Both the position numbers and the translations under genes were made by a program. From the NCBI GenBank assembly GCA_037133055.1, contig JBAXOY010000031.1, positions 1 to 27,655 on the forward strand: DNA of 27,655 nucleotides, given 5' to 3'. This document shows, piece after piece, positions 1-12,453 of this stretch. Position 1 is the stretch's first letter; every line of letters begins with the position of its first letter. This DNA is from Chlamydiota bacterium (lineage in GTDB: Bacteria; Auribacterota; Tritonobacteria; UBA1439). The notes under the pieces were generated by a model, which worked only from the letters and a program-made list of their open reading frames with translations, had not been told where the DNA came from and made no database searches.

Positions 1-1176
1 CAGTGGTACGCGAGGAACCACACGCTTCCGTGCGTCGTCCCGGCCATGTTCATCGCGGGGGCGATCGCGACGTTCCTGTCGCAGGCCTCCGTCATGAAGC
101 ACCTCGGCCCGCGCTCGAACAAGGCCGTCGCCTACGGCGTCGCCTCCGTTTCGGGCTGTGTCCTCGCGGTCTGCTCGTGCAGCGTTCTTCCGATGTTCGC
201 CGGCATCTACACGATGGGCGCGGGGCTCGGCCCCGCGTGCGCCTTCCTCTACTCGGGCCCGGCGATCAACGTGATGGCGATATTCCTCACGGCGCGCGTG
301 CTGGGCTTCGACATCGGCCTCTGGCGCGCGGTCGGGTCGATCGCCTTCGCCGTCGTCATCGGCCTCCTCATGGCGGGCATATTCCGGAGGGGAGAGACGC
401 GCAGGATGGAGGGGTTCGCCCTCGACGAATCGCCCCCCGCGCGTCCGCTCTGGAAGACATCCCTCTTCTTCCTCTGCCTTGTGCTCTTCCTGGTATTCTC
501 CGACTGGTCCACCCCCGGCAATTTCACCCTCGTCATGAACGACGGCCGTGAGCTGAATGGGAACATGCGGTACGAAACGCGCGACATGGTGAACTTTCAG
601 GTGATCGAAAACGGCGAGGCGGGCGAACAGGTGGAGATCAAGCGGGGGGATATCCGCTCGATCTCTCAGGAGGAGAGTCTCACGGTGAAGATCCACCGCG
701 TCCGCTGGTGCCTTGCGGGCGCGATGGGGCTCGCCGTCGCCGTGATGTGCGCGCTCTGGTTCACGCGCGGGGAGTTCGGCGCGTGGATGTCCCAGACATG
801 GAGCTTCGCCAGGATGATAGTCCCGCTCCTTTTCGGAGGTGTTTTCGTCACGGGCTTTGTCTCCGCGCTCATCCCGGAGAAGGCGGTCGCCAGTCTCGTC
901 GGCGACAACGGGTTTGTATCCAACTTCGTCGCCTCGTTCGTCGGGGCGTGCTGGTATTTCGCGACACTCACGGAGATCCCGATCGTCCAGGCGCTCCAGA
1001 AACTGGGGATGGCGAAGGGGCCCTCGCTGGCCCTCCTTCTCGCGGGGCCGGCGCTCTCCATCCCGAGCATGCTCGTCATACGGAGCATCCTTGGGGTGAA
1101 GAAGACGGCGGTGTTCGTTTTTCTGGTGGTCATGATGTCGACGGTTGTCGGGATGATATTCGGCCGCCTCGGTTGA
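1..1176 (+). CDS. ArsP/DUF318-family permease (5'-truncated by window edge)
   Basis: Frame is open from position 1 (QWYARNHTLPCVVPAM...). Family motifs VCSCSVLPMF, AFLYSGPAIN, YFATLTEIPI and LLLAGPALSIPS. Multiple TM segments. Upstream of trx, ccdA and acr3. Confidence 0.85.
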   Translation, partial: QWYARNHTLPCVVPAMFIAGAIATFLSQASVMKHLGPRSNKAVAYGVASVSGCVLAVCSCSVLPMFAGIYTMGAGLGPACAFLYSGPAINVMAIFLTARVLGFDIGLWRAVGSIAFAVVIGLLMAGIFRRGETRRMEGFALDESPPARPLWKTSLFFLCLVLFLVFSDWSTPGNFTLVMNDGRELNGNMRYETRDMVNFQVIENGEAGEQVEIKRGDIRSISQEESLTVKIHRVRWCLAGAMGLAVAVMCALWFTRGEFGAWMSQTWSFARMIVPLLFGGVFVTGFVSALIPEKAVASLVGDNGFVSNFVASFVGACWYFATLTEIPIVQALQKLGMAKGPSLALLLAGPALSIPSMLVIRSILGVKKTAVFVFLVVMMSTVVGMIFGRLG

Positions 1177-1199
1177 CGCCGAGTCATGGAGGGTAAAAG

Positions 1200-1568
1200 A
1201 TGAGAGTCAATCGAACGCGTTGCGCCATCGCCGCGGTCGCCGTGTCTGTCCTTGTTTCGTGCGCGTGGGGGGAAGAGCCGGCACACAGGATCCCACGCCT
1301 GGTGGACCTCGGGCGGACGTTCTGCATCCCCTGCAAGAAGATGGCGCCGATCCTCGCCGGGCTCAAAGTGGAGTACGCGGGCCGGCTCGATGTCGAGTTC
1401 ATCGATGTCGGGGATAACCCGGACGCCGCCCGCAACTACGGCATCCGCCTGATCCCGACGCAGGTGTTCATCGACGCCTCGGGCAAGGAGCTCTCCCGGC
1501 ACGAGGGGTTCATGGCGAAGGAGGACATCCTCGCGCAGTGGAAAAAGCTCGGGGTTGAGCTGAAGTGA
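1200..1568 (+). CDS. Exported thioredoxin-family protein (CIPC active site)
   Basis: LVDLGRTFCIPCKKM CxxC motif and cis-Pro motif IPTQVF. N-terminal signal peptide (possible lipobox LVSC). GGAGG SD upstream. Confidence 0.9.
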   Translation: MRVNRTRCAIAAVAVSVLVSCAWGEEPAHRIPRLVDLGRTFCIPCKKMAPILAGLKVEYAGRLDVEFIDVGDNPDAARNYGIRLIPTQVFIDASGKELSRHEGFMAKEDILAQWKKLGVELK

Positions 1569-1587
1569 CCACTTCGGGGATGAAGAG

Positions 1588-2289
1588 ATGCTCGAAAGGA
1601 TATTCACCTCTCTGACGCACGCGGTCGGGGGGGCGCCGCCCGTCGCTCTGGCTGCCTCCTTCGCGTGGGGCGTGCTCTCGATTGTGCTCAGCCCCTGCCA
1701 TCTCGCGAGCATTCCGCTCATCGTTGGGTTCATCGACGATCTCGGAAGGATTTCGACGCGCCGGGCGTTTCAGGTCTCCGCCCTTTTCGCGGTGGGGATA
1801 CTGATCACGATAGGGCTCGTGGGGGCGGCCACCGCCGCGGCGGGGCGCATGATGGGCGACCTCGGCCGATGGGGCAACTACCTCGTGGCGGTGATTTTCT
1901 TCGCGGTCGGCCTGCACCTGCTGGGATGTATCCCTGCCCCCTGGACGGCGCCGACCGGGGTTGGTTCGAAGAGGAAGGGGCTCCTCGCCGCCTTCATCCT
2001 CGGCCTTGCCTTCGGGATCGCTTTGGGGCCGTGCACGTTCGCCTACATGGCCCCGATGCTGGGGGTGGCGTTCAGCCTCGCCGCGACGAGGCTCTGGTAC
2101 GGGATCGCGCTGCTCCTCGCCTACGGGGCGGGGCACTGCGCGGTGATCGTGCTCGCCGGGACGTACTCGGAGGCCGTCCAGCGGTACCTCGACTGGAACG
2201 AGCGATCCCGGGGCGCGGTCATTCTCAAGAAGGTCTGCGGGGCGCTTGTCATGCTGGGGGGGGGCTATCTCATCTGGATCGCGCGGTAG
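1588..2289 (+). CDS. ccdA: CcdA/DsbD transmembrane-domain disulfide reductant transporter
   Basis: LSPCHLASIP and GPCTF Cys-Pro motifs, about 6 TM helices, adjacent to the thioredoxin. Confidence 0.88.
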   Translation: MLERIFTSLTHAVGGAPPVALAASFAWGVLSIVLSPCHLASIPLIVGFIDDLGRISTRRAFQVSALFAVGILITIGLVGAATAAAGRMMGDLGRWGNYLVAVIFFAVGLHLLGCIPAPWTAPTGVGSKRKGLLAAFILGLAFGIALGPCTFAYMAPMLGVAFSLAATRLWYGIALLLAYGAGHCAVIVLAGTYSEAVQRYLDWNERSRGAVILKKVCGALVMLGGGYLIWIAR

Positions 2290-2306
2290 CGTGCAGGGGG
2301 GAGGAT

Positions 2307-3008
2307 ATGGGAGAGATCTACAAGGTCGAGCCGTCGCCGGAATATCCGCCGGAAGAAGGGTGCTACCTCCGCGGCAACGACTATTCCCCCGTCGCCGTCT
2401 GCGTCATCCTCAACCGCAGGAGGGAGGAGACGCCCCCCGACTATGAAATGCTGGTGCGGACGGCGGTGGAAACGGGGGCGGCGCTGGCGGGGACGCTTCA
2501 GACGGAGAACATCGGCCTCGAGAAGGTCGTCCTCAACATCACGGCGAATCCCAACATCCGCTACCTCGTCCAGCTCGGCCCCGAGTCGCCCGGGCACCTG
2601 ACGGGTGCCGCGGTCGCCGCGCTCGTGAAAAACGGCGTGGACGCTCGGAAAAGGATCATCGGGTCCGAATCGCCCACCCCCTATCTTTTCAACATCCCAA
2701 TGGAGCACATCGAGCGGTTTCGCGAGCAGGTGACGCTCGTGGATTTCCTGAACGAGGGATCCGTGGACCTCGTGCGGGGGGCGGTGCAGGCCTGCTACCA
2801 GGAGGAGCCGACGGAGTTCCGCGGGTACCGCCTCTACGATCCGGGCGCGATCAGGAAGCCCCCGCTCTCCGGGAAGATCACCTGGCGCGTCACGCACCCG
2901 GAAAAGGAGCCGAAGACCGAGGAGGAGCGCGCGCAGCACCAGAAGGGTAAGGCGATGGTCGAGTGGATGAGAAAGAAGATGGAGGAAAAAAAACGGCGCG
3001 GTAAATGA
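2307..3008 (+). CDS. MtrA-like (tetrahydromethanopterin S-methyltransferase subunit A family) corrinoid protein, soluble, no membrane anchor
   Basis: ATG at 2307 after GGAGG (the 1665 ORF start overlaps ccdA). Matches MtrA motifs: G.Y..G...[54 protein letters not shown]. Confidence 0.88.
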
Positions 3009-3033
3009 GGTCGGAAACCGGGAGGGACAGGCG

Positions 3034-4224
3034 ATGAGCGCGTCGGCGAAACAGGCCGCACGGGGGCTTGGTTTTTTCGAGAGGTATCTCACGGTATGGG
3101 TGATCCTGTGCATCGTCGCGGGGATATTCCTGGGACGGATCGCGCCGGGGGTTGCGACGTTCCTGGACGGCCTCGCCATCTACGTGGGCGGCGCGCCGGC
3201 GGTGTCGATACCCATCGCCATCTGCCTCTTCTTCATGATGTACCCGATCATGGTAAAGATCGACTTCGCGGAGGTGATCAGCGCGGGGAAGACGCCGAAG
3301 CCGGTGGCCCTCACGCTGTTCGCGAACTGGGCCATCAAGCCGTTCACCATGTACGCGATCGGGGTCTTTTTCCTGGGCACCCTTTTCATCAGGTTCATCG
3401 GGGTTGACGCGGTGGATTACGTGAAGATGCCGCTCGGCCTCAACCTCGATCTCGGGGCGATGTACGGCGCGGGAAGGGTGGTCATGCACGGCGGGATGAA
3501 AATGCTCGAGGTGCCGCTCTGGCGGAGCTATCTCGCCGGCTGCATCCTCCTCGGCATCGCCCCCTGCACGGCGATGGTGCTTGTCTGGGGCTACCTCGCC
3601 AAGGGGAACGACGGGCACACGCTTGTCATGGTGGCGATCAACTCCCTCTCCATGCTCGTCCTGTACGGCCCCCTCGGGGGTTTCCTCCTCGGCGTCGGGC
3701 GCATCCCGGTCCCGTGGCAGGCGCTCGTCCTCTCGATCGCGATCTACGTGGCGCTCCCGCTCGTAGCCGGCTACTACTCGCGGAAATGGGTAATCCGCGC
3801 GAAGGGGGAGGCATGGTTCAGTGAGAAGTTCCTCCACATCCTCACCCCCATCACCGTCATCGCGCTTCTTCTCACCCTGGTCCTCCTCTTCTCGTTCAAG
3901 GGGGAGATCATCACCTCGAAGCCGCTCACCATCCTCTGGCTCGCCATCCCGCTCTTCCTCCAGACGATGCTGATCTTCTGGATCACCTACGGGCTCGCGA
4001 AGATCCTGAACCTCACCTACGAGGACGCGGCGCCGAGCGCCATGATCGGGGCCTCGAACCATTTCGAGGTCGCCATCGCCACCGCGACGCTCCTCTTCGG
4101 ACTCTCCTCGGGGGCGGCGCTCGCGACGGTGGTTGGGGTCCTCATCGAGGTGCCCACCATGCTATGGCTTGTGTGGATCTGCAAGAAGACGAAGGGGTGG
4201 TTCAGAAAAGAGCGGCGGGCATGA
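3034..4224 (+). CDS. acr3: Acr3-family arsenite efflux transporter
   Basis: [43 protein letters not shown] and VGVLIEVP are Acr3 signature motifs. GGAGG SD. Confidence 0.95.
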
Positions 4225-4291
4225 GCGAGTCCGATCTGTTCAACACCCCGGTCCTCCTTTTGCAGGAAAGCCTGTCGGACAGGTCCGTGGC

Positions 4292-4307
4292 GGGGGCTTC
4301 AGCCCCC
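4292..4307. terminator. Short GC hairpin between convergent genes (possible terminator)
   Basis: GGGGGC-TTCA-GCCCCC directly beside the stop codon of the - strand gene. No clear U-tract. Confidence 0.35.
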
Positions 4308-4308
4308 C

Positions 4309-5421
4309 TCACCGGACGAGCGCCATGAAGATCTCGAACAGGATGAGGATGACGATGGAGAGCTCGAGGATCGTGGAGCGTAGGTTGTAGACGCGCATGG
4401 TAAGGGTGTCGGACATCTCGCGGAGCGCCGAGAGTTTCCGGTCCAGTCCACGCTTCCACTCTGCGAGGTAGAGCCTCGCGCCGATCGCCCGGTGCACTCG
4501 CGCCGCGTAGAGGGTGTCGATCGCCTTCAGCGAGTTGTCGATCTGGTCGGTGAGCCAGATGACGTCCGTCATGAGCGTCATCGTGCGCTTCGACAGCCTG
4601 CCCACGCCCGCGCCGCCGAGTATCGGGTCCCGCGCCCCTTCGGCGTACACGTCGCGGGCGAGAGTGTCCAGCTCCCCGTCCAGCCAGCGGTCGTAGTAGC
4701 GCATGTCGAGGAGCTGCGTGTTGGCGAACTCGATGATGTGGATATGGTCCGTATACTCCTCCTTGTCGTAGAGGAACGCGCGGTCCCAGTCCACCACGAG
4801 CACGTCGTCGGGGTAGTAGGAAAAACCGTTCGAAAGGGCGTTCGCCGTCTCCTGGTCGCTCAGGCTGCGCTCCTCGGCCCTGAGGATCATGGCGATCTCT
4901 TTCCCGTGCCTATCGAGGAGCTGCTGGCCCGTGAACGGCTCCTCGATGCCCGTGACATGGAAGACCGCGTAATCCTCCATCAGGTCGCTCTCGATCGGGC
5001 GGTAGAGCGCGGGGGCGACGATCTCCTTTATCTTCCTGAGGTAGTGCGCCGAGAGCGGGAGGAACGGCTCGCCCTCGAACAGCTCCGCGGAGAGCGCGAC
5101 GAGTTCCCCGAAATCGCCGCTAAACGGGAGCTTGAAGCGCAGGCTCACCACGCCGAAATCGAAGACGCGCGCCTGGACAGGGACGGAAACGGTTTTCCCC
5201 TGGAGTCTGACCTTCTCCTCGCCGAGCCTGATGATGAGCGGGAGGCTCTCGAAGCGAAGGTAGTGGCTCTTCGATCGGCGCATCGAGATGACCCCCTCGG
5301 TCTCCTGGCTGCTGAGGAGCTTCTCGAGTGTGTCCACCTTCACCGCGTAGGCGAGCTCATAGCAGTAGAAGAGGTGTATGTTCCCCCTGATCGCGGGACC
5401 GCGGGTCTGTGTATTCATCAC
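4309..5421 (-). CDS. RMD1/DUF155-like protein with C-terminal TM helix
   Basis: 370-aa ORF with VFDFGVVSLRF, IEFANTQLLDMRYYD and a C-terminal LELSIVILILFEIFMAL typical of RMD1/DUF155-like proteins. Start is GTG 5421 or ATG 5418. Confidence 0.7.
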   Translation of the reverse strand: MMNTQTRGPAIRGNIHLFYCYELAYAVKVDTLEKLLSSQETEGVISMRRSKSHYLRFESLPLIIRLGEEKVRLQGKTVSVPVQARVFDFGVVSLRFKLPFSGDFGELVALSAELFEGEPFLPLSAHYLRKIKEIVAPALYRPIESDLMEDYAVFHVTGIEEPFTGQQLLDRHGKEIAMILRAEERSLSDQETANALSNGFSYYPDDVLVVDWDRAFLYDKEEYTDHIHIIEFANTQLLDMRYYDRWLDGELDTLARDVYAEGARDPILGGAGVGRLSKRTMTLMTDVIWLTDQIDNSLKAIDTLYAARVHRAIGARLYLAEWKRGLDRKLSALREMSDTLTMRVYNLRSTILELSIVILILFEIFMALVR

Positions 5422-5427
5422 TGCGGC

Positions 5428-5433
5428 ATTATA
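5428..5433 (-). promoter_or_regulatory. Sigma70 -10 box for the - strand gene (probably leaderless transcript)
   Basis: Perfect TATAAT on the - strand, 6 nt before GTG 5421. No SD and no good -35. Confidence 0.55.
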
Positions 5434-5571
5434 CTACATTCCCGGCCGCCCGTGGGCGTCATCAGCCGCCCTCCCGGCGCCTTCGACGATGCTCTCCAGC
5501 GAGGGGAGGGGCAGTGTAACTCCCTCCCATCAAAGAGATTGGAGTAGTAGTAATTATTCTCGATGGGGATA

Positions 5572-5600
5572 TTGTATCCTGTCAGGTCCTGTGCTATATT
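5572..5600 (+). promoter_or_regulatory. Sigma70 promoter for C1 peptidase 1
   Basis: TTGTAT(5572-77)-17 nt-TATATT(5595-600) with extended TGn. Confidence 0.6.
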
Positions 5601-5608
5601 TCATGCAG

Positions 5609-7063
5609 ATGAAAATGCCCCCGATGCCGCGCATCGTGAGGTCCCCATCCCTGGCGGCCCTGCTTCTCTTTGGGTGTGTGTGCGCCTCGCTTGCCGCTCC
5701 CCCTGGGACCCCGCTCGCCTTCGAGAGGAATGATTCGATCGAGGTGCTTCGCGCCAAGATCGCGCACAACGGCTGCTCGTTCAAGGTCGGCCACAATTGG
5801 GTGTATGATTTGCCCCCCGAGCATAGGGAAGCGATGCGCGGCCGCCGCGCGTCGTCTTTCGCGACGGCCATTTCCGACGAGATAGGCCCTCTCGAGAAAC
5901 ATCTCTCGAAGGCGCTCCCGGCGGCCTTCGACTGGAGGAACTTCAACGGCCATTTCTACATCGGCCCGGTCCGGAACCAGGGGTCGTGCGGCTCCTGTTA
6001 CGCCTTCGGGGCGGCGGCTGCTGCGGAGGGAACGTACAACTTCGCCCTCGGCCTCTACGACGGGGCCTGCGCGGATTTCTCCGAGGCGTTCATCGCCGGA
6101 TGCGTGGGGAGTCTGCCCGCGTATAACCCGCATTTCTACGGGTGCGATGGCGCCGACTACGACTACCAGGAACTCCAGGCGCTGACGGTCGAGGGGATCT
6201 GCTACGAATCCGCCTACCCGTATTCGTCGGCCGCCGCGCAGACCTGTCCCTCCACGACATGGTCAGCCCCGAGGGCTGTCTTTGCTTCCTGGTACAGGGT
6301 CCCGTGCGGCGATATCGAGGCGATTAAGACCGCGATCATGACGTACGGCGTGGTGGATGTGGCGGTCCAGACGACCAGCGCGTGGGATGCATACGCCGGC
6401 GGGATTTACAGTGACTCGAATACCGCGTGCACCGCGTCGCCCTGCTACAATGAAACAGCGGATCACGCGGTTTCGCTCGTGGGATGGGACGACACCCCGC
6501 CCGAGGGGGGCGGGGGATGCTGGACACTGAGAAATTCCTGGGGGCCGGACTGGGGCGAGGGCGGCTACATGAGGATACGCTACACCTCGGCGGCCGTCTC
6601 CTGCGCGGTCTGCTACCTCGTGTATGGCGGCGGGGCGGTGAGCACGCCGACTCCCACCACGACACCCGTCTCTCCTCCCGCTCCCACGCCCGTGCCGCCG
6701 CTTGCCCTGATCATGAACGCCAGTTCCGTCTCCGGGGGAAGCCCTCTCATCGTGGATGCGATGGTCCAGATGCTCTGGCAGACGGTCGACGTCTGGGGAG
6801 TCGTCTTCGGCCCCGGGGGGACCGTCTACTCGTTCGTCCCCGGCAATCCTGCCGCCCTCCGCCCCGGCGCCGCGCCCCTCGATACCGATGTCCCGGGATT
6901 CTGGGCCCCCGTCCGGTCCCGCCTTCTCGAAATGACGATTCCGCCCGGCGCGCAGGGCGACTATCGGATTGTCGCGGGTCTTGTGCCGGCGGGGATCGCG
7001 CCGACGGGGCCCGAGAGCGCGGTCCCCGGCTACGTGGACCAGAAGACGATCATCGTCCGCTGA
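5609..7063 (+). CDS. Secreted papain-like (C1) cysteine peptidase 1 with Pro/Thr linker and C-terminal domain
   Basis: QGSCGSCYAF (Gln/Cys), DHAVSLVGW (His), LRNSWG (Asn). Signal peptide ending ASLA. TPTPTTTP linker. Start uncertain among 5603, 5609, 5615 and 5624. Confidence 0.92.
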   Translation: MKMPPMPRIVRSPSLAALLLFGCVCASLAAPPGTPLAFERNDSIEVLRAKIAHNGCSFKVGHNWVYDLPPEHREAMRGRRASSFATAISDEIGPLEKHLSKALPAAFDWRNFNGHFYIGPVRNQGSCGSCYAFGAAAAAEGTYNFALGLYDGACADFSEAFIAGCVGSLPAYNPHFYGCDGADYDYQELQALTVEGICYESAYPYSSAAAQTCPSTTWSAPRAVFASWYRVPCGDIEAIKTAIMTYGVVDVAVQTTSAWDAYAGGIYSDSNTACTASPCYNETADHAVSLVGWDDTPPEGGGGCWTLRNSWGPDWGEGGYMRIRYTSAAVSCAVCYLVYGGGAVSTPTPTTTPVSPPAPTPVPPLALIMNASSVSGGSPLIVDAMVQMLWQTVDVWGVVFGPGGTVYSFVPGNPAALRPGAAPLDTDVPGFWAPVRSRLLEMTIPPGAQGDYRIVAGLVPAGIAPTGPESAVPGYVDQKTIIVR

Positions 7064-7097
7064 CGCGCCGCGGCGGACGAAAAAAAGGGAGAATCTC

Positions 7098-8456
7098 GTG
7101 AGTATCACGCGCAAGATTTTTCTGTTTCCCGCCGTGTTCCTTTTTCTGTTCGCTTTTCCCGCGATTTCGCGCGCGGGCGGGAGCGGCCGTTCCGCCGCGG
7201 CGGCGGACGCCGCGCTCGATGCGATGAGGGCGGATATCGCCCGCAATGGCTACTCGTACACGGTCGGGCACACGTGGGTGGGCGATCTGTCTCCCGAGCA
7301 GAGGGAGGCGATGCGCGGCCGCCGTCGCGGGCGGTTTGCGGCGCGGGCGTCAGACGACATCGGCCCACTCGTGAACCATCTCGGGAAGGCGCTCCCGGCG
7401 GCTTTCGACTGGAGGAGCTTCAACGGCCGCTCCTACATCGGCCCCATCCAGAATCAGGGGAATTGCGGCTCGTGCTACGCCTTCGGGGCTGCGGCCGCGG
7501 CGGAGGGGGCGTACAACTTTGCCCTCGGACTCTACGACGGGGCCTGCGCGGACTTTTCCGAGGCGTTCATCGCGTGGTGCCTCGGCAGTTTGCCGCAGTA
7601 CACCGGGTATTTCTACGGATGCGACGGCTCGGACGACTCCTACATGGAGCTCCAGGCGCTGGCGGAGGTGGGCATCTGCTACGAGTCGGTGTTCCCCTAC
7701 TCGGACGCCGACCCGCAGAGCTGCCCGCCGGCGGCGCAGACCGCCTCGAGGGTGAAGTTCGGGAGCTGGCACCCGATCCCCAGTCTTGACGTCGGGGCGA
7801 TAAAGACGGCGATTATGACGTACGGGGTGGTGGACACGGGGCTCCAGACCACACCCGGATTCGACAACTACATAGGCGGAGTATACGAGGATGCGAACAC
7901 CTCCTGCGGCGATGTAGACCACGCAGTCTCGCTGGTGGGATGGGACGACACCCCCCCCGAGGGGGGAGGGGGATGCTGGATACTGAGAAACTCTTACGGC
8001 ACGGAGAACTGGGGCGAGGGCGGCTACATGAGGATACGGTACATGTCCGCCCGCGTCGCGTGTGGCGCGGCATATTTCGTATATACCGGCGGCGGGCCCC
8101 CGCAGGGCCCCCCGGTCGCTCTGAGACCTGCCCGGACCAGCTTTTCCCGGACCGACCTGATCGACGTCTCTGCGGATGTCCAGGCGATCTCCACCCTGTT
8201 CTTCCCGTTCGTGAGGTTCGTTCTCCCCGACGGGCAGGTCCTCTACTACACCGCGGGACGCGGGCTTGCCCCGGAGCCGTCGTCATATCTCGATGGGGGC
8301 CCGTTTGTGCTCGCGTCACCCGTCAGCGGGTATCCCGTTCTCTCTCTCCCGTTCAGCGAGGTCGCGCCGGGGACGTACTACATCGAAGGCGGGGCGGTGG
8401 ACACCGGCCTCAACTACCTGGGCTCGGTGAGCCGGGAGGCCCTGACGGTGCAGTGA
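7098..8456 (+). CDS. Secreted papain-like (C1) cysteine peptidase 2
   Basis: GTG 7098 after AGGGAG. Signal peptide. QGNCGSCYAF, DHAVSLVGW, LRNSYG. Close paralogue of peptidase 1 over the catalytic domain. Confidence 0.92.
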   Translation: MSITRKIFLFPAVFLFLFAFPAISRAGGSGRSAAAADAALDAMRADIARNGYSYTVGHTWVGDLSPEQREAMRGRRRGRFAARASDDIGPLVNHLGKALPAAFDWRSFNGRSYIGPIQNQGNCGSCYAFGAAAAAEGAYNFALGLYDGACADFSEAFIAWCLGSLPQYTGYFYGCDGSDDSYMELQALAEVGICYESVFPYSDADPQSCPPAAQTASRVKFGSWHPIPSLDVGAIKTAIMTYGVVDTGLQTTPGFDNYIGGVYEDANTSCGDVDHAVSLVGWDDTPPEGGGGCWILRNSYGTENWGEGGYMRIRYMSARVACGAAYFVYTGGGPPQGPPVALRPARTSFSRTDLIDVSADVQAISTLFFPFVRFVLPDGQVLYYTAGRGLAPEPSSYLDGGPFVLASPVSGYPVLSLPFSEVAPGTYYIEGGAVDTGLNYLGSVSREALTVQ

Positions 8457-8522
8457 AACGGGCCTTCGATTGGGGTCCGCCGGTTCGTATCGGTTTCTGA
8501 TTTCCCGCGGGTGGTTCTGCCG

Positions 8523-8551
8523 TTGAACCGCGCGCGCTTTTGGGGTAACAT
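8523..8551 (+). promoter_or_regulatory. Sigma70 promoter for C1 peptidase 3
   Basis: TTGAAC-17 nt-TAACAT, followed by an AGGAGG SD and ATG 8593. Confidence 0.5.
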
Positions 8552-8592
8552 AGAGTGTGGCTTTGGGTTCCCACCACTACAGGAGGGGCGCG

Positions 8593-9963
8593 ATGAAGAA
8601 AGCGATTCTGTTCCTTGTGCTGCTGTCGGCATTGTTTCCCATGAGCACGGCGCTGATGGCGCAAAACGAATGCACAATCATGCAGCCGGACCTTGCGACG
8701 TTTAAGCAATGGATGGCGCAGGACATGAGTTTGCCGAAGGCCTATATCGACCCCGCCATAAAGCCGAAGAGGGGATCGGCCAGTCTGCTCGGCTATCTGC
8801 CGTATATCCCCGCGGAGCGCAATCAGGGCAACTGCGGCGACTGCTGGACGTGGGCGGCGACGGGATGCATGGAGATATGGCACAACTATTCGTACGGCAT
8901 CGCGGACCGCCTTTCCATCCAGTTCATAAACTCCTGCAAGACCGACACGTTCCCCTGCTGCGGCGGCAACCCCTACGGGTTCGCCACCTGGTATGCCGCG
9001 CAGGGAATCGCGGTCCCATGGTCGAACAGCGGGGCAAGTTTTGCTGATGGCGGAACAGCACCGGACTGTAGCTCGGCCCCGGCGGTGGCTTGCTCCAGTA
9101 TTTCCACCTCCCCAAATTACCCGCTCAATTCCATCTCCGCATCCCTGATCACCACGACGGGAGTGGGACAGGCGACTGCGATCGCAAACATAAAGAATGT
9201 GCTCGCCCAGGGCAAGGCGGTCTACTGGGGGTTCTGGCTGCCCAGGACGGTCGATTGGGACAATTACCGGAATTTCTGGAATAACAATAACGAGACCGTG
9301 CTGTGGAGCCCGGAATTCTGTTACGGCGCGACCGCGGACTCCGGGTTCGGAGGGCATGCGGAGCTCATCGTCGGCTACAACGACGACAATCTCTCGAACC
9401 AGTACTGGATCGTGGTGAACAGTTGGGGAACCGCCAGCGGGAACCGTCCCAACGGCATCAACCATCTGAAAATGAACATCAATTACGATGGCCAGTACTA
9501 TAACAGCGGATGGTGGCCCGTCGTCCGCTTTTATACCGTGGACGTCAGTTTCGGTGGCGGTCCCATTCCCACGCCCACCCCGCAGCCCCCGACGCCCACA
9601 CCGAAGCCCCCGTGCCCCGTCCGCGTGGACCCGGACCAGACGAGCTTCTCGGCCGCTTCGGACCAGATAGATCTCTACGCGTCCACGGACACGCTCACCA
9701 CGTGGTGCTATCCGTTCGTCCGGATCGTGACGCCGTACTACGGGACCTACTACCTCACCTCGCGCTTGGTGATGTACCCGTACCCGATGCCGTACACCCC
9801 CTACTCGATCACCACCACCGGGCCGCTCAGCGGCCTGTTCCTGTGCGGCGTCTGGTGGAGGAATCTCTACCCGGGCACGTACTACGTCGAGAGCGGGGCC
9901 GTAAATGCCTATAGCCTCAGTCTGATCGGTCCCATATACACCGTGCCGTTCACGCTGAACTAA
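8593..9963 (+). CDS. Secreted papain-like (C1) cysteine peptidase 3 (divergent)
   Basis: MKKAILFLV signal peptide. NQGNCGDCWTWA, GGHAELIVGY, VVNSWG. PTPTPQPPTPTP linker. AGGAGG SD. Confidence 0.9.
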   Translation: MKKAILFLVLLSALFPMSTALMAQNECTIMQPDLATFKQWMAQDMSLPKAYIDPAIKPKRGSASLLGYLPYIPAERNQGNCGDCWTWAATGCMEIWHNYSYGIADRLSIQFINSCKTDTFPCCGGNPYGFATWYAAQGIAVPWSNSGASFADGGTAPDCSSAPAVACSSISTSPNYPLNSISASLITTTGVGQATAIANIKNVLAQGKAVYWGFWLPRTVDWDNYRNFWNNNNETVLWSPEFCYGATADSGFGGHAELIVGYNDDNLSNQYWIVVNSWGTASGNRPNGINHLKMNINYDGQYYNSGWWPVVRFYTVDVSFGGGPIPTPTPQPPTPTPKPPCPVRVDPDQTSFSAASDQIDLYASTDTLTTWCYPFVRIVTPYYGTYYLTSRLVMYPYPMPYTPYSITTTGPLSGLFLCGVWWRNLYPGTYYVESGAVNAYSLSLIGPIYTVPFTLN

Positions 9964-10012
9964 AACAGTTTCTCGTTGGTACAGGGTCACTCGTGGAGGG
10001 CTCCCGCATTAT

Positions 10013-10053
10013 CCCCCTCCCCCTTATGAAGGGGGAGGGCAGGGTGGGGGTGA
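10013..10053. repeat. REP-like intergenic palindromic element
   Basis: Perfect 11-bp stem CCCTCCCCCTT-ATG-AAGGGGGAGGG (10015-10039) followed by CAGGGTGGGGGTGA. Confidence 0.55.
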
Positions 10054-10275
10054 TAGTACGGGTACTGGTTACCGGGTTCTGGTTTCTCGGGAGAACGTTG
10101 ACACGATCGACGGGAAACGGGCAGCACGGCACCCGCTGGGCTGCCCTATTTTTCTGCCTGGACCCGTTCCGTCCCGCGCGCGACGGGACAGCGGATTCGC
10201 GCACTCCTTGCGGTTCATCGCGTGAGGATGTATATATAATGGATTGGGCATGGTTTCAAGAGGGAGGGCGGCGCA

Positions 10276-12453
10276 ATGAAAAAGCTTTTCTGTCTCGGCG
10301 CGGCGCTGGCGCTGCTCCCCGCGATGGCGGGGGCGCAGTACTATCCGGGGAAGATCACCGACTACACCATCGGCAGGCCCGCGGAGGAGAAGGCCGGTTT
10401 CATGGCGACGGGAATGCAGTCCGACGCCGCCGCGCGCATGAGCGCCGAATCGGCCGCCCCCGTCGAGGTGAAGTATAACGCGAAGACCGGCGTGCCGTAC
10501 CTCCTCTCGGGCAGCTTCTCTCTCAGCGGCCGGAAGGCGGGCGCCGCGGAAGAGGCGGCCGTCAAGGCGTTCCTCGACAGGAACCGGGACATCTTCGGCA
10601 TCCGTGATGCGTCGGGCGAACTGAACCTCGCCAACGCAGAGACCGATCAGCACGGACTGCGCACGCTCCGATTCGCACAGCGCCACCGGGGGGTGCCCGT
10701 GTACGGGGGCGACCTCCTCGCCCATCTCGACGCGGACGGGAACCTCACCTCCGTGAACGGGAACTACCTGCCCGGCATCTCCCTCGACACGGCGCCGGCA
10801 GTCACCCCCGCCGAGGCGGTCACCATCGCCAAGGCCGCGCTCGGGATCGCGGAAGCGGACCTGCGCAACACGATCGGCCCCGAGCTGATGATATATCCCA
10901 TGGACGGGGTCTATCGCCTCGCCTGGTGCCTCACGCTCGCGGCCTCGAAACCGGCCGGAGAGTGGAAATGCTTCGTGGACGCGAAGTCGGGGACGCTCAT
11001 CGAGAAGTGGAACGACGCGAAGTACGCGGACGCGGTGCTCACGGGGGTGGGGGTGCTCGGGGATACGATCAGCGTGCATGGGTACTATCAACCCTGGCGA
11101 TACGCTTTCTGGCTGGACTGGACTCCATTGTACGTCCCGCCGTATTGGGATCAGTCCGGTATTTATAACTGGCCCGGCTATGGACTTGCGGATACCACCA
11201 AGCCGATGTTCAACCCGTCGACGGGGAAGGGATATATCGGGACCATGAACGCGGGGATGCAGGACGTAACCTCGCTCTACCAACCCATGTACATATGCGC
11301 TCGGTGGACTACCAATTTCGCGGGCTTGTTTTCCGGATCGAACACGGTATGGGATTTTTCGGGCCATTACAACGCCGGCAAGGTATACGACTACTGGCTG
11401 AGCCATTTCGGGAGGAACAGCATCGACAACAACGGCATGACCATCAACGTCCTCACAAACTGCATGTTCGGCTCCGATGCGACAAACGCGATGTGGTCGA
11501 AAAATCCCTCGAGTCCCTACTTTCCGCAAGGGGCCGTCTTCTTCGGCAGGGGCGATTACTCGGTTGCGCTCGGCCAGTCGGGCTCCCTCTCCTGCGTGAC
11601 GCACGAGCTCACGCACGGCGTCACGAACTACACCTGCAACCTCGAGTACAAGAACCAGTCAGGGGCGATCAACGAGGCGTTCTCGGATTCGTTCTCGTAC
11701 GCGCTCAGGGCCTCGGCGGGCGACCCGAACGCGCATCTCTACAACGGCGAGGGGTGCTGGATCGCCTCGCCGGGGTACTGCCGGAATCTCCAGGACCCGC
11801 ACCTCGGCTATACCCAGAGCCCCTATTCATTCGGCGCGCTGCCCGCGAACATGGACGAGTACGTCACCACGACGGAGGACAACGGCGGCGTGCACATCAA
11901 CATGTCCATAATCTCGCACACCTTCTACCTGATCTGCCAGGCGATCGGCGTCCAGAAGGGGGAGCAGATCTGGTACAAGACCCAGACGCAGTACTGCGCC
12001 ACGACGACCACGTTTACCCAGCTCCGCGACCTTGCCCTCCAATCGTGCAGCGACCTCTACGGGAGGGGGGCCGAGTACGCCGCCGTGGCGAACGCGTTCG
12101 CCACTGTGGGCATTGGCAACATGATGGTCAGGCGGGGGGACGCGCTCAACGTCAACGTTTCGGTTTCGGCGATAGCCGAGACGTCATTCGGCTTCAATGC
12201 CTACTCGGTTGTGACAACCCCGTGGGGGCAGATATTCACGGTGTACCAGAGCGCGGTGAGCCCGTTCAAAGGCGCCCTGGCCCGCGTGCCGGGGCTCCCG
12301 AACGGCTACCCCGCGGCCGTCTACAACGGCGCGGTCCCGACCTCGATCTCCGCGGGGGATTATGTCTTCGAGGTCGCGGTCATACCCGCCGAGATGCCCC
12401 AGGCGCGAGAGAACGCCAGGTTCCACAAGACGATCACTGTCACCATGCTGTGA
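10276..12453 (+). CDS. Secreted M4 (thermolysin-family) zinc metallopeptidase with FTP/PepSY propeptide and C-terminal domain
   Basis: Signal peptide. Propeptide motifs RFAQRHRGVPVYG and FVDAKSG. HELTH, GAINEAFSD, DNGGVHIN. GGAGG SD. Confidence 0.93.
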   Translation: MKKLFCLGAALALLPAMAGAQYYPGKITDYTIGRPAEEKAGFMATGMQSDAAARMSAESAAPVEVKYNAKTGVPYLLSGSFSLSGRKAGAAEEAAVKAFLDRNRDIFGIRDASGELNLANAETDQHGLRTLRFAQRHRGVPVYGGDLLAHLDADGNLTSVNGNYLPGISLDTAPAVTPAEAVTIAKAALGIAEADLRNTIGPELMIYPMDGVYRLAWCLTLAASKPAGEWKCFVDAKSGTLIEKWNDAKYADAVLTGVGVLGDTISVHGYYQPWRYAFWLDWTPLYVPPYWDQSGIYNWPGYGLADTTKPMFNPSTGKGYIGTMNAGMQDVTSLYQPMYICARWTTNFAGLFSGSNTVWDFSGHYNAGKVYDYWLSHFGRNSIDNNGMTINVLTNCMFGSDATNAMWSKNPSSPYFPQGAVFFGRGDYSVALGQSGSLSCVTHELTHGVTNYTCNLEYKNQSGAINEAFSDSFSYALRASAGDPNAHLYNGEGCWIASPGYCRNLQDPHLGYTQSPYSFGALPANMDEYVTTTEDNGGVHINMSIISHTFYLICQAIGVQKGEQIWYKTQTQYCATTTTFTQLRDLALQSCSDLYGRGAEYAAVANAFATVGIGNMMVRRGDALNVNVSVSAIAETSFGFNAYSVVTTPWGQIFTVYQSAVSPFKGALARVPGLPNGYPAAVYNGAVPTSISAGDYVFEVAVIPAEMPQARENARFHKTITVTML

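Follow-up and report, generated by a model that had tools for sequence, protein, structure and literature searches.

Positions 1 to 27,655 of contig JBAXOY010000031.1 (assembly GCA_037133055.1, from a Chlamydiota bacterium that GTDB places in the Auribacterota) make up the stretch of DNA analysed here, referred to as the window. Near its start, at positions 2307..3008, lies an MtrA-like gene that encodes a soluble protein of 233 amino acids with the fold of MtrA from the methanogen Mtr complex and a predicted cobamide-binding site. The gene stands in a co-oriented run on the forward strand, to which all coordinates refer unless noted. The run begins with an ArsP-like permease gene (1..1176; PF03773), whose 5' part is cut off by the contig start, and continues with a gene for a thioredoxin-fold protein with a CIPC motif and a hydrophobic N-terminus (1200..1568), a gene that profile matches assign to the CcdA/DsbD-type membrane thiol-redox proteins (1588..2289), the MtrA-like gene, and acr3 (3034..4224), the terminal gene of the unit. 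The intergenic gaps are 23, 19, 17 and 25 nucleotides, and these coordinates bear out a preliminary description of the window, which had placed an MtrA-family domain 17 nucleotides past ccdA and 25 nucleotides ahead of acr3 in the same orientation.

The acr3 product scores 371.7 bits against TIGR00832 (cut-off 282.8), so an arsenite exporter is present in the unit. No ArsG model is among the Pfam and NCBIfam matches listed for the CcdA-type protein. The permease matches Pfam ArsP_1 (237.8 bits) and no NCBIfam equivalog; its earlier naming as ArsP-like stands at the level of the family, and an arsenic substrate is not established by it.

No promoter-like site occurs within positions 1-4500 of the window. 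Another contig (C158) closes with an arsR gene that has an LCVCEI motif, a thioredoxin gene of the ArsE/MTH895 type and the opening codons of a permease gene. Because both pieces are colinear with a related locus (L001), we infer that C158 joins the start of the window, with 39 nucleotides missing between them. Ahead of its arsR are a TTGACG-16-TAATAT site and an imperfect inverted repeat, and such a repeat likewise precedes arsR in L001, L003 and L006. A genome of the same genus (L189) has the unit whole, in the order arsR-arsE-arsP-trx-ccdA-mtrA-like-arsM-acr3. The operon with the MtrA-like gene is predicted to be under ArsR control.

The MtrA-like codons differ from those of L001 by 37 synonymous and 8 non-synonymous changes, a purifying pattern. 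The L001 protein is 97% identical to the query and its operon DNA about 90% identical. L001 is labelled Planctomycetota, unlike the other close relatives of the query, which are labelled Ca. Auribacterota; this mismatch represents either a recent transfer or a matter of labelling or binning.

Elsewhere in the same genome, contig C2 (G000:C2:8100-13300, L081) carries a second ArsR-led unit, consisting of an unknown gene, a ccdA-like gene, a P-type ATPase gene, an intact arsM and, last, a broken copy of the 5' part of the window's acr3. The broken copy closing this unit suggests that arsM moved out of the operon in the window.

Fold, predicted cobalamin site and C-terminal tail

The only Pfam match of the MtrA-like protein is MtrA (PF04208; 137.7 bits, residues 6-171, model positions 1-156 of 173). 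It passes the NCBIfam subfamily model NF002126 (177 bits, cut-off 161) and fails the MtrA equivalog TIGR01111 (127.4, cut-off 249.15). An AlphaFold model with a mean predicted local distance difference test score (pLDDT) of 79 was searched with Foldseek, and at E < 0.001 only MtrA structures were retrieved. These comprise seven chains, six with template-modelling (TM) scores by target of 0.89-0.94 and one of 0.66; the best matches are MtrA 5L8X and 5LAA (E 6e-17, TM by target 0.91-0.94, 32-36% identity).

The cobalamin contacts of PDB 5LAA are given by Wagner et al. (2016; PMC4915002). By alignment, they correspond to Y20, Q65, T66, E67, N68, G70, V74, N77, H97 and L127 of the MtrA-like protein. 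The segment Q65-N77 (2499..2537) matches Lys52, Thr53, Glu54, Asn55, Gly57, Val61 and Asn64 of 5LAA, and His97, whose CAC codon lies at 2595..2597 within the ESPGHLTG motif exactly as previously described, is the equivalent of the cobalt-ligating His84. Among the query and its 120 best homologues (n = 121, out of 3907 found), T66, E67, G70 and N77 are present in all 121, H97 and Y20 in 120, and N68 in 117. The cobalt-ligating histidine is also kept in 137 of 138 dereplicated clade sequences from the loci described below. In MtrA, the His84/Glu54 pair serves cycling between methyl-Co(III) and Co(I) (PMC4915002), and the pair is intact here as H97 and E67. Because the cobalamin-contact residues, including the histidine, are conserved, the protein likely binds a cobamide.

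In place of the membrane anchor, the protein has a clade-specific C-terminal extension (LYDPGA...KITWRVTHP) followed by a predicted helix at residues 205-231 (2820..2999). Past residue 172, the 19-residue Kyte-Doolittle windows peak at -0.52 in the query and do not exceed 0.59 in any of the 121 sequences, compared with 2.69 in a canonical MtrA-type protein; the lack of a hydrophobic tail in all 121 means that no C-terminal membrane anchor is present. The preliminary description was thus right that the anchor is missing, and its charged tail proves to be more than that, since T192, W193 and P198 of the extension are conserved in 120-121 of 121 sequences and a long helix is predicted. A further helix is inserted after the first strand, relative to MtrA.

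The three cysteines of the protein (C19, C32 and C163) were considered as an arsenic site and rejected. More distant members lack C19, whose position corresponds to a residue that touches the nucleotide tail through its main chain; C163 occurs in methanogen MtrA as well, and C32 is variable.

Position outside the Mtr complex

The MtrA-like gene is the only one in its genome. The absence of other mtr genes, first noted for the window, extends to this 92%-complete genome, in which the MtrH and MtrE models find nothing; both are positive in two methanogen controls. PF02007, the MtrH-type partner, is also absent from the genome, and MtrH occurs in only one of 50 host genomes, which were picked for taxonomic spread from the 79 loci described below. 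Given these absences, the failure against TIGR01111 and the missing anchor, membership in an Mtr complex is rejected, and no full Mtr-like complex that uses the protein is encoded. The score against NF010654, which we take to be the MtxA model, is 105.7, below its cut-off of 279, and neither HgcA (NF040863) nor CdhD matches the protein (P0001). Identity as ArsM, as MtxA or as an Mtr subunit was rejected (PMC3087415 and PMC9982363 served for comparison).

A FastTree phylogeny of 270 dereplicated domains places the MtrA-like proteins in a clade of 189 rows with a support of 97, apart from canonical MtrA and from MtrA-DUF4346 fusions. Its sister group consists of fusions of MtrA to thymidylate synthase (P0156, P0157, P0159, P0161, P0168, P0172, P0177, P0179 and P0188; L182 and L183), for which a dedicated literature search found no reports.

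Recurrence in arsenic-resistance operons

A genome scan gave 152 relatives, of which the best 80 were taken as 79 loci; these carry 17 NCBI phylum labels, five are unlabelled, and two stem from one genome. A script called the genes and grouped them into clusters; Pfam and NCBIfam names were assigned to cluster representatives rather than to each member, and neighbours within 5 kb were scored with profiles built from the clusters. One or more of acr3, arsM, arsC, arsA or arsD is found within this distance in 57/79 loci, on the same strand in 56, and in 32 of the 41 loci that are well flanked (at least 3 kb on both sides). The enrichment beside ars genes, for which the preliminary description had proposed a survey, is therefore strong. 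Any gene of the wider module is near in 73/79 loci. Individual counts per 79 loci are arsR 53, acr3 50, arsE 41, arsP 40, ccdA/arsG 38, arsM 22, arsC 21, DGC 18, arsF 17 and thioredoxin-MerB 6. The named gene most often found downstream of the MtrA-like gene is acr3 (13/77), and most neighbouring ArsR proteins have a CVC motif. Taken with the structural results, these counts support the earlier view of an orphan, soluble and probably cobamide-binding MtrA-family protein that recurs in ars operons.

Gene order is shuffled among the loci. Neighbouring Acr3 proteins fall into two groups, approximately 75-92% and approximately 30% identical to that of the window, with a few between, and the MtrA-like protein stays 54-92% identical across loci with different Acr3 groups. 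Given the shuffled order and the two Acr3 groups, the MtrA-like gene has entered, or been kept in, ars operons of unrelated origin, a sign of repeated recruitment. When arsM is present, it adjoins the MtrA-like gene or is separated from it by a single AhpD-like gene in 17/22 loci, several of which are close kin, and the encoded ArsM is intact, with C59, C147 and C197 invariant.

A metagenome scan was centred on a more distant member, and its best 80 of at least 524 matches lie on short contigs and include some duplicates of genome loci. Among these 80, a strict arsenic gene is present in 32 and a module gene in 49; the count for well-flanked loci is 8/15. In a deep branch, probably of archaea, 12/28 loci have a strict arsenic gene and 20/28 a module gene. 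An even sample of 301 Chloroflexota genomes yielded four new clade loci with a scored gene, two in full ars operons and two not. As a control in this sample, acr3, arsM, arsC, arsP and arsE were absent near DUF4346-type MtrA genes in 9/9 loci scored; a tenth MtrA gene of this type was missed by gene calling and is not counted. Phages gave no match to the family, plasmids gave four DUF4346-type matches only, and the ESM Atlas gave MtrA-named clusters only. No cultured carrier was identified among the loci.

Some members carry additional domains. In L011 and L026, the MtrA-like domain is fused in frame to a low-molecular-weight arsenate reductase domain with a CTGNSCRS loop; the two fusions are on separate tree branches, and the L011 sequence extends into a stretch of Ns. 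An N-terminal 2x[4Fe-4S] domain is fused in L115, L116 and P0130, and a C-terminal PF04060 Fe-S module in L216, L217 and P0133; the latter module also occurs on the host's large subunit of the Wood-Ljungdahl corrinoid iron-sulfur protein (CFeSP). Proteins longer than 408 amino acids are mostly of a basal type with Cys-rich tails. Two further candidates were set aside. The linker of P0160, an apparent ArsC fusion, reads like an out-of-frame translation and its MtrA start is missing, and P0274, an apparent ArsM fusion, has a methyltransferase part that reaches 46 bits against an ArsM cut-off of 263 and a junction that looks frameshifted.

In the large basal subgroup (L117-L121, L143 and L158; P0123, P0127, P0128 and P0273-P0389), the domain is fused to, or lies beside, tandem Cys-rich helical proteins without a Pfam family; in some cases there is a TusA-like N-terminus or an HMA gene. 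Separately, eight genome loci encode, 4-97 nucleotides ahead of the MtrA-like gene, a protein of 55-70 amino acids that belongs to no known family and often ends in HCxP. Its representative is L059:5786-5965, with relatives in L030, L039, L050, L053, L062, L063, L072, L190 and L216 (about ten loci); it is sometimes present in two copies and is absent from the genome of the window. The thioredoxin-MerB genes (L024:2902-4197, L056:11564-12832, L013, L018, L027 and L045) encode a fusion to an organomercurial lyase domain, which is a candidate C-As or C-Hg lyase.

Host genomes and the Wood-Ljungdahl pathway

CFeSP is encoded in 45 of the 50 host genomes, and the AcsE model scores above its cut-off in 29/52 hosts. 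Within the window's own phylum, CFeSP is found in 22/79 genomes, including all seven carriers of the MtrA-like gene, which belong to one family; the background in Planctomycetota is 68/401. With ArsE-positive Planctomycetota as a match for the operon type, CFeSP is present in 17/18 hosts versus 29/89 ArsE-positive genomes lacking the MtrA-like gene. In an even sample of this phylum, the MtrA-like gene occurs in 5/34 genomes with both ArsE and CFeSP versus 1/61 genomes with ArsE and without CFeSP. The Chloroflexota behave similarly, with CFeSP in 4/4 clade hosts versus 1/10 hosts of DUF4346-type MtrA.

The genome of the window encodes acetyl-CoA synthase (ACS), both CFeSP subunits and RACo on contig C29, and has 31 B12-binding matches. 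It has no ArsC of either of the two families searched. Despite the ACS/CFeSP/RACo cluster, the only AcsE-like domain found in this genome is part of an 808-amino-acid MetH-like protein (G000:C5, L230:1783-4209) that lacks an activation domain.

Comparison with known systems

The MtrA-like protein shares with MtrA of the Mtr complex (PF04208; 5LAA, 5L8X and 8Q3V; PMC4915002) the fold, the cobalamin-contact residues and the His-Glu pair. It differs in its low identity to the solved chains, the lack of an anchor, the absence of MtrH and MtrE, the inserted helix, the C-terminal extension, a clade of its own and its ars context. Methanogens also have cytoplasmic MtrA homologues of 170-180 amino acids that are 60-97% identical to MtrA (PMC4915002); the present protein, at 233 amino acids and 32-36% identity to the solved MtrA chains, belongs to a separate clade. 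Bacterial MtrA homologues are mentioned in the available part of the same source without a function. MtxA of the mtxXAH unit is accompanied by an MtrH-type partner, MtxH (PMC3087415), and no such partner occurs here.

HgcA and HgcB resemble this system in dedicating a corrinoid protein to a toxic element in anaerobes, and the ferredoxin partner HgcB is paralleled by the ferredoxin-type (Fer4) and Fe-S fusions of the MtrA-like protein. HgcA has a cysteine ligand and a membrane domain, and its fold is that of CdhD/CFeSP. In contrast, the MtrA-like protein has the MtrA fold, is soluble, would by homology use a histidine ligand, and does not match the HgcA model. The hgcA gene is often near ars genes (PMC7438021), and HgcA has been linked to ArsR control (bioRxiv 2022.10.17.512643). 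In three genomes (L014, L023 and L070), the ars cluster that carries the MtrA-like gene also contains hgcA or has it alongside.

ArsM is the arsenite methyltransferase dependent on S-adenosylmethionine (SAM), and ArsI is an O2-dependent C-As lyase. The net reaction of the MtrA-like protein would likewise be to form or cleave C-As bonds, and arsM often adjoins its gene, but Pfam detects neither a SAM-binding nor a glyoxalase domain in it, and its cofactor would be a cobamide. The earlier claim that it is distinct from ArsM holds for the protein, with the qualification that the two genes are adjacent or one gene apart in most arsM loci, as counted above.

Methylation of arsenic by a side reaction of MtaA and methylcobalamin is reported from Methanosarcina (Thomas 2011 and Wuerfel 2012, via PMC13262295). 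A methyl-cobalt donor to arsenic is common to both cases, but the MtaA reaction is incidental and unregulated, unlike the predicted ArsR regulon here. The arsR5-arsP-arsE-DGC operon of Pseudodesulfovibrio mercurii ND132 and modules of the arsEFG type (TIGR00412, NF040494 and NF040495) have the same backbone as the present operons. The ND132 operon is reportedly induced by arsenic, and the available part of its description mentions no MtrA-like gene (bioRxiv 2022.10.17.512643).

Other orphan fusions, MtrA-thymidylate synthase and MtrA-PterinBD-DUF4346, are likewise soluble MtrA domains without Mtr; they differ in having a second domain in cis and in not being found beside acr3, arsM, arsC, arsP or arsE. 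Members of the MtrA-PterinBD-DUF4346 clade, some with a Cys-rich tail, lie directly behind ArsR/SmtB-family genes in 4/4 Planctomycetota loci (L174, L179, L180 and L181), whose four hosts lack CFeSP. MtrA-DUF4346 genes also follow arsR and a P-type ATPase gene in L219 (Chloroflexota) and L197 (Planococcus plasmid NZ_MN657143.1). This fusion may amount to a cobamide system for heavy metals that is self-contained and supplied by folate.

Possible functions

Judged from conserved residues and gene context, the protein may be a soluble cobamide methyl carrier that passes methyl groups of the Wood-Ljungdahl pathway to thiol-bound arsenite, and we favour this function tentatively. As(III) would lift ArsR repression of the operon. 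An AcsE-type pterin-dependent methyltransferase, or methyl-CFeSP, would then methylate the bound cob(I)amide; methylation would occur in trans because the MtrA-like protein has no pterin-binding domain. The methyl group would be accepted by As(III) held on thiols, which might be the cysteines of ArsM, a thioredoxin-fold or other Cys-rich protein of the operon, or a small thiol. Thioredoxin and CcdA proteins would reduce the product, the ArsP-like permease would export methylarsenite, and Acr3 would export the arsenite left unreacted. A fused or host Fe-S activator would restore oxidised cobalt to Co(I). Overall, such a pathway would give energy-poor anaerobes a SAM-sparing path to methylated arsenic. 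Three points favour transfer to arsenite: methylcobalamin-dependent methylation of arsenic has precedent (PMC13262295), the pairing with arsM agrees with a role on the methylating side, and 17/41 well-flanked loci have an ArsP-like exporter but no arsM.

Several observations weigh against this function. Clustered neighbour genes include no dedicated methyltransferase partner, and the intact SAM-dependent ArsM in 22/79 loci makes a second methylase look redundant. In the absence of oxygen, methylarsenite is more toxic than arsenite. The 121-sequence alignment contains no conserved set of arsenic-binding cysteines, so the protein needs partners. The genome of the window has no detected CobS, and its only AcsE-like domain is in the MetH-like protein mentioned above, below the cut-off. 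Since only 6/95 ArsE-positive Planctomycetota carry the MtrA-like gene, the operon works without it. No module gene is near in 6/79 genome loci or in 31/80 of the mostly short metagenome loci, and ars and module genes are found in 0/7 loci of the basal subgroup beside Cys-rich helical proteins. The contrast in the even Planctomycetota sample is weak (p 0.02, or 0.05 without the chosen centre), with kin that are not independent, and the link to CFeSP may reflect only cobamide supply or strict anaerobiosis. That link cannot separate methyl transfer to arsenite from the alternatives.

The reaction might run in the opposite direction, with methyl groups from trivalent methylarsenicals entering the Wood-Ljungdahl pathway and arsenite leaving by Acr3. 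Such O2-independent demethylation, which we regard as unlikely, agrees with the place of acr3 among the commonest neighbours and as the most frequent named downstream gene, with the abundance of organoarsenical-defence genes (ArsP-like, ArsE, ArsF and thioredoxin-MerB), and with CFeSP as a methyl sink in most hosts. An anaerobic route through corrinoid proteins has been proposed (PMC6776024), trivalent dimethylarsenic, DMAs(III), is the better substrate (PMC10579292), methanogenic microcosms are described without arsI transcripts (bioRxiv 2026.08.27.747368), and demethylation would fill a larger gap than methylation. However, co-transcription with arsM would result in futile cycling, a methyltransferase that could activate the substrate is not conserved in the vicinity apart from one MtmB-like pair (L094/L095), and Co(I) would have to displace a poor leaving group in attacking the bond between methyl and As(III). 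A rather unlikely alternative is that the cobalt serves redox chemistry, with Co(I), supplied by ferredoxin-like clusters, reducing pentavalent arsenicals (arsenate, or the methylated As(V) species that arise in methylation) or recycling the thiol system of the operon. The two arsenate reductase fusions, the several Fe-S fusions, the close pairing with arsM and the lack of ArsC in the window's genome are in keeping with this role. The ArsM cycle itself needs reduction steps. In addition, cob(I)alamin is cited as an agent of metalloid hydride formation (PMC13262295). Nevertheless, characterised MtrA is a methyl carrier whose His-Glu switch is kept here (PMC4915002), the operons already encode thioredoxin, ArsE and CcdA-type reductants, and most members lack an Fe-S module.

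It is improbable that the protein acts as a protective reservoir or decoy, storing, shielding or swapping cobamide against the attack of arsenite or methylarsenite on Wood-Ljungdahl corrinoids with no net conversion of arsenic. Protection of this sort would explain the tie to hosts with CFeSP, the missing CobS, and why the protein has neither arsenic-binding cysteines nor a constant catalytic partner, but it leaves the ArsC fusion and the arsM pairing unexplained, and the Fe-S fusions suggest that the cobalt is redox-cycled. The least probable alternative is that the protein really acts on a different thiophilic metal or metalloid (Hg, Sb, Se or Cd), or that the gene is a passenger of stress islands of the ArsR/SmtB type. 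The basal subgroup without ars genes, which is beside or fused to Cys-rich helical proteins and accompanied by an HMA protein, is consistent with this possibility, as are the DUF4346-type MtrA genes that follow ArsR/SmtB and P-type ATPase genes, the hgcA and thioredoxin-MerB genes near 3 and 6 of the 79 loci, and an ArsP-like permease family that is not specific to arsenic. Against this alternative, the gene is kept beside two Acr3 subfamilies and beside arsM, arsC, arsA and arsD in shuffled orders under 17 phylum labels, it occurs fused to ArsC, and its change relative to L001 is purifying.

Other genes of the window

Convergent with acr3 is a gene for 369 amino acids on the reverse strand (4309-5421), which has no Pfam or NCBIfam match. 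Positions 5378-12453 hold three tandem genes for papain-family (C1) peptidases, followed by one for a peptidase of the M4 thermolysin family.

Conclusions

The MtrA-like gene is a real, widespread and conserved accessory gene of anaerobic ars operons and is apparently undescribed: no description of it in such operons was found in the literature searched, whose scope excluded most subscription papers and supplements. A 2026 metatranscriptome preprint on anaerobic demethylation (bioRxiv 2026.08.27.747368) does not contain 'mtr' in its available part, and the supplementary gene tables of the two preprints cited may bear on novelty. The same preprint still calls the mechanisms of anaerobic arsenic methylation and demethylation unresolved. 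In anoxic soils, sediments and aquifers, the amount of methylated arsenic that enters rice and water depends on these processes, for which the known enzymes are ArsM, which needs SAM, and ArsI, which needs O2. A defined histidine ligand, operon and host pathway make the question testable at the bench. Databases label these homologues 'tetrahydromethanopterin S-methyltransferase subunit A', which can be misread as a sign of methanogenesis. A role in arsenic metabolism would be the first function for MtrA homologues outside methanogens and would provide a marker gene for surveys of the arsenic cycle.

More broadly, it is plausible, if somewhat short of an even chance, that Wood-Ljungdahl anaerobes of many bacterial phyla, and probably archaea, have a dedicated, arsenic-induced cobamide system that makes or breaks C-As bonds without SAM or O2 and is wired to the methyl branch of their carbon pathway. 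With the MtrA fold as its basis, such a system would parallel HgcAB for arsenic and, should it operate in reverse, would supply the anaerobic C-As lyase that is still missing.

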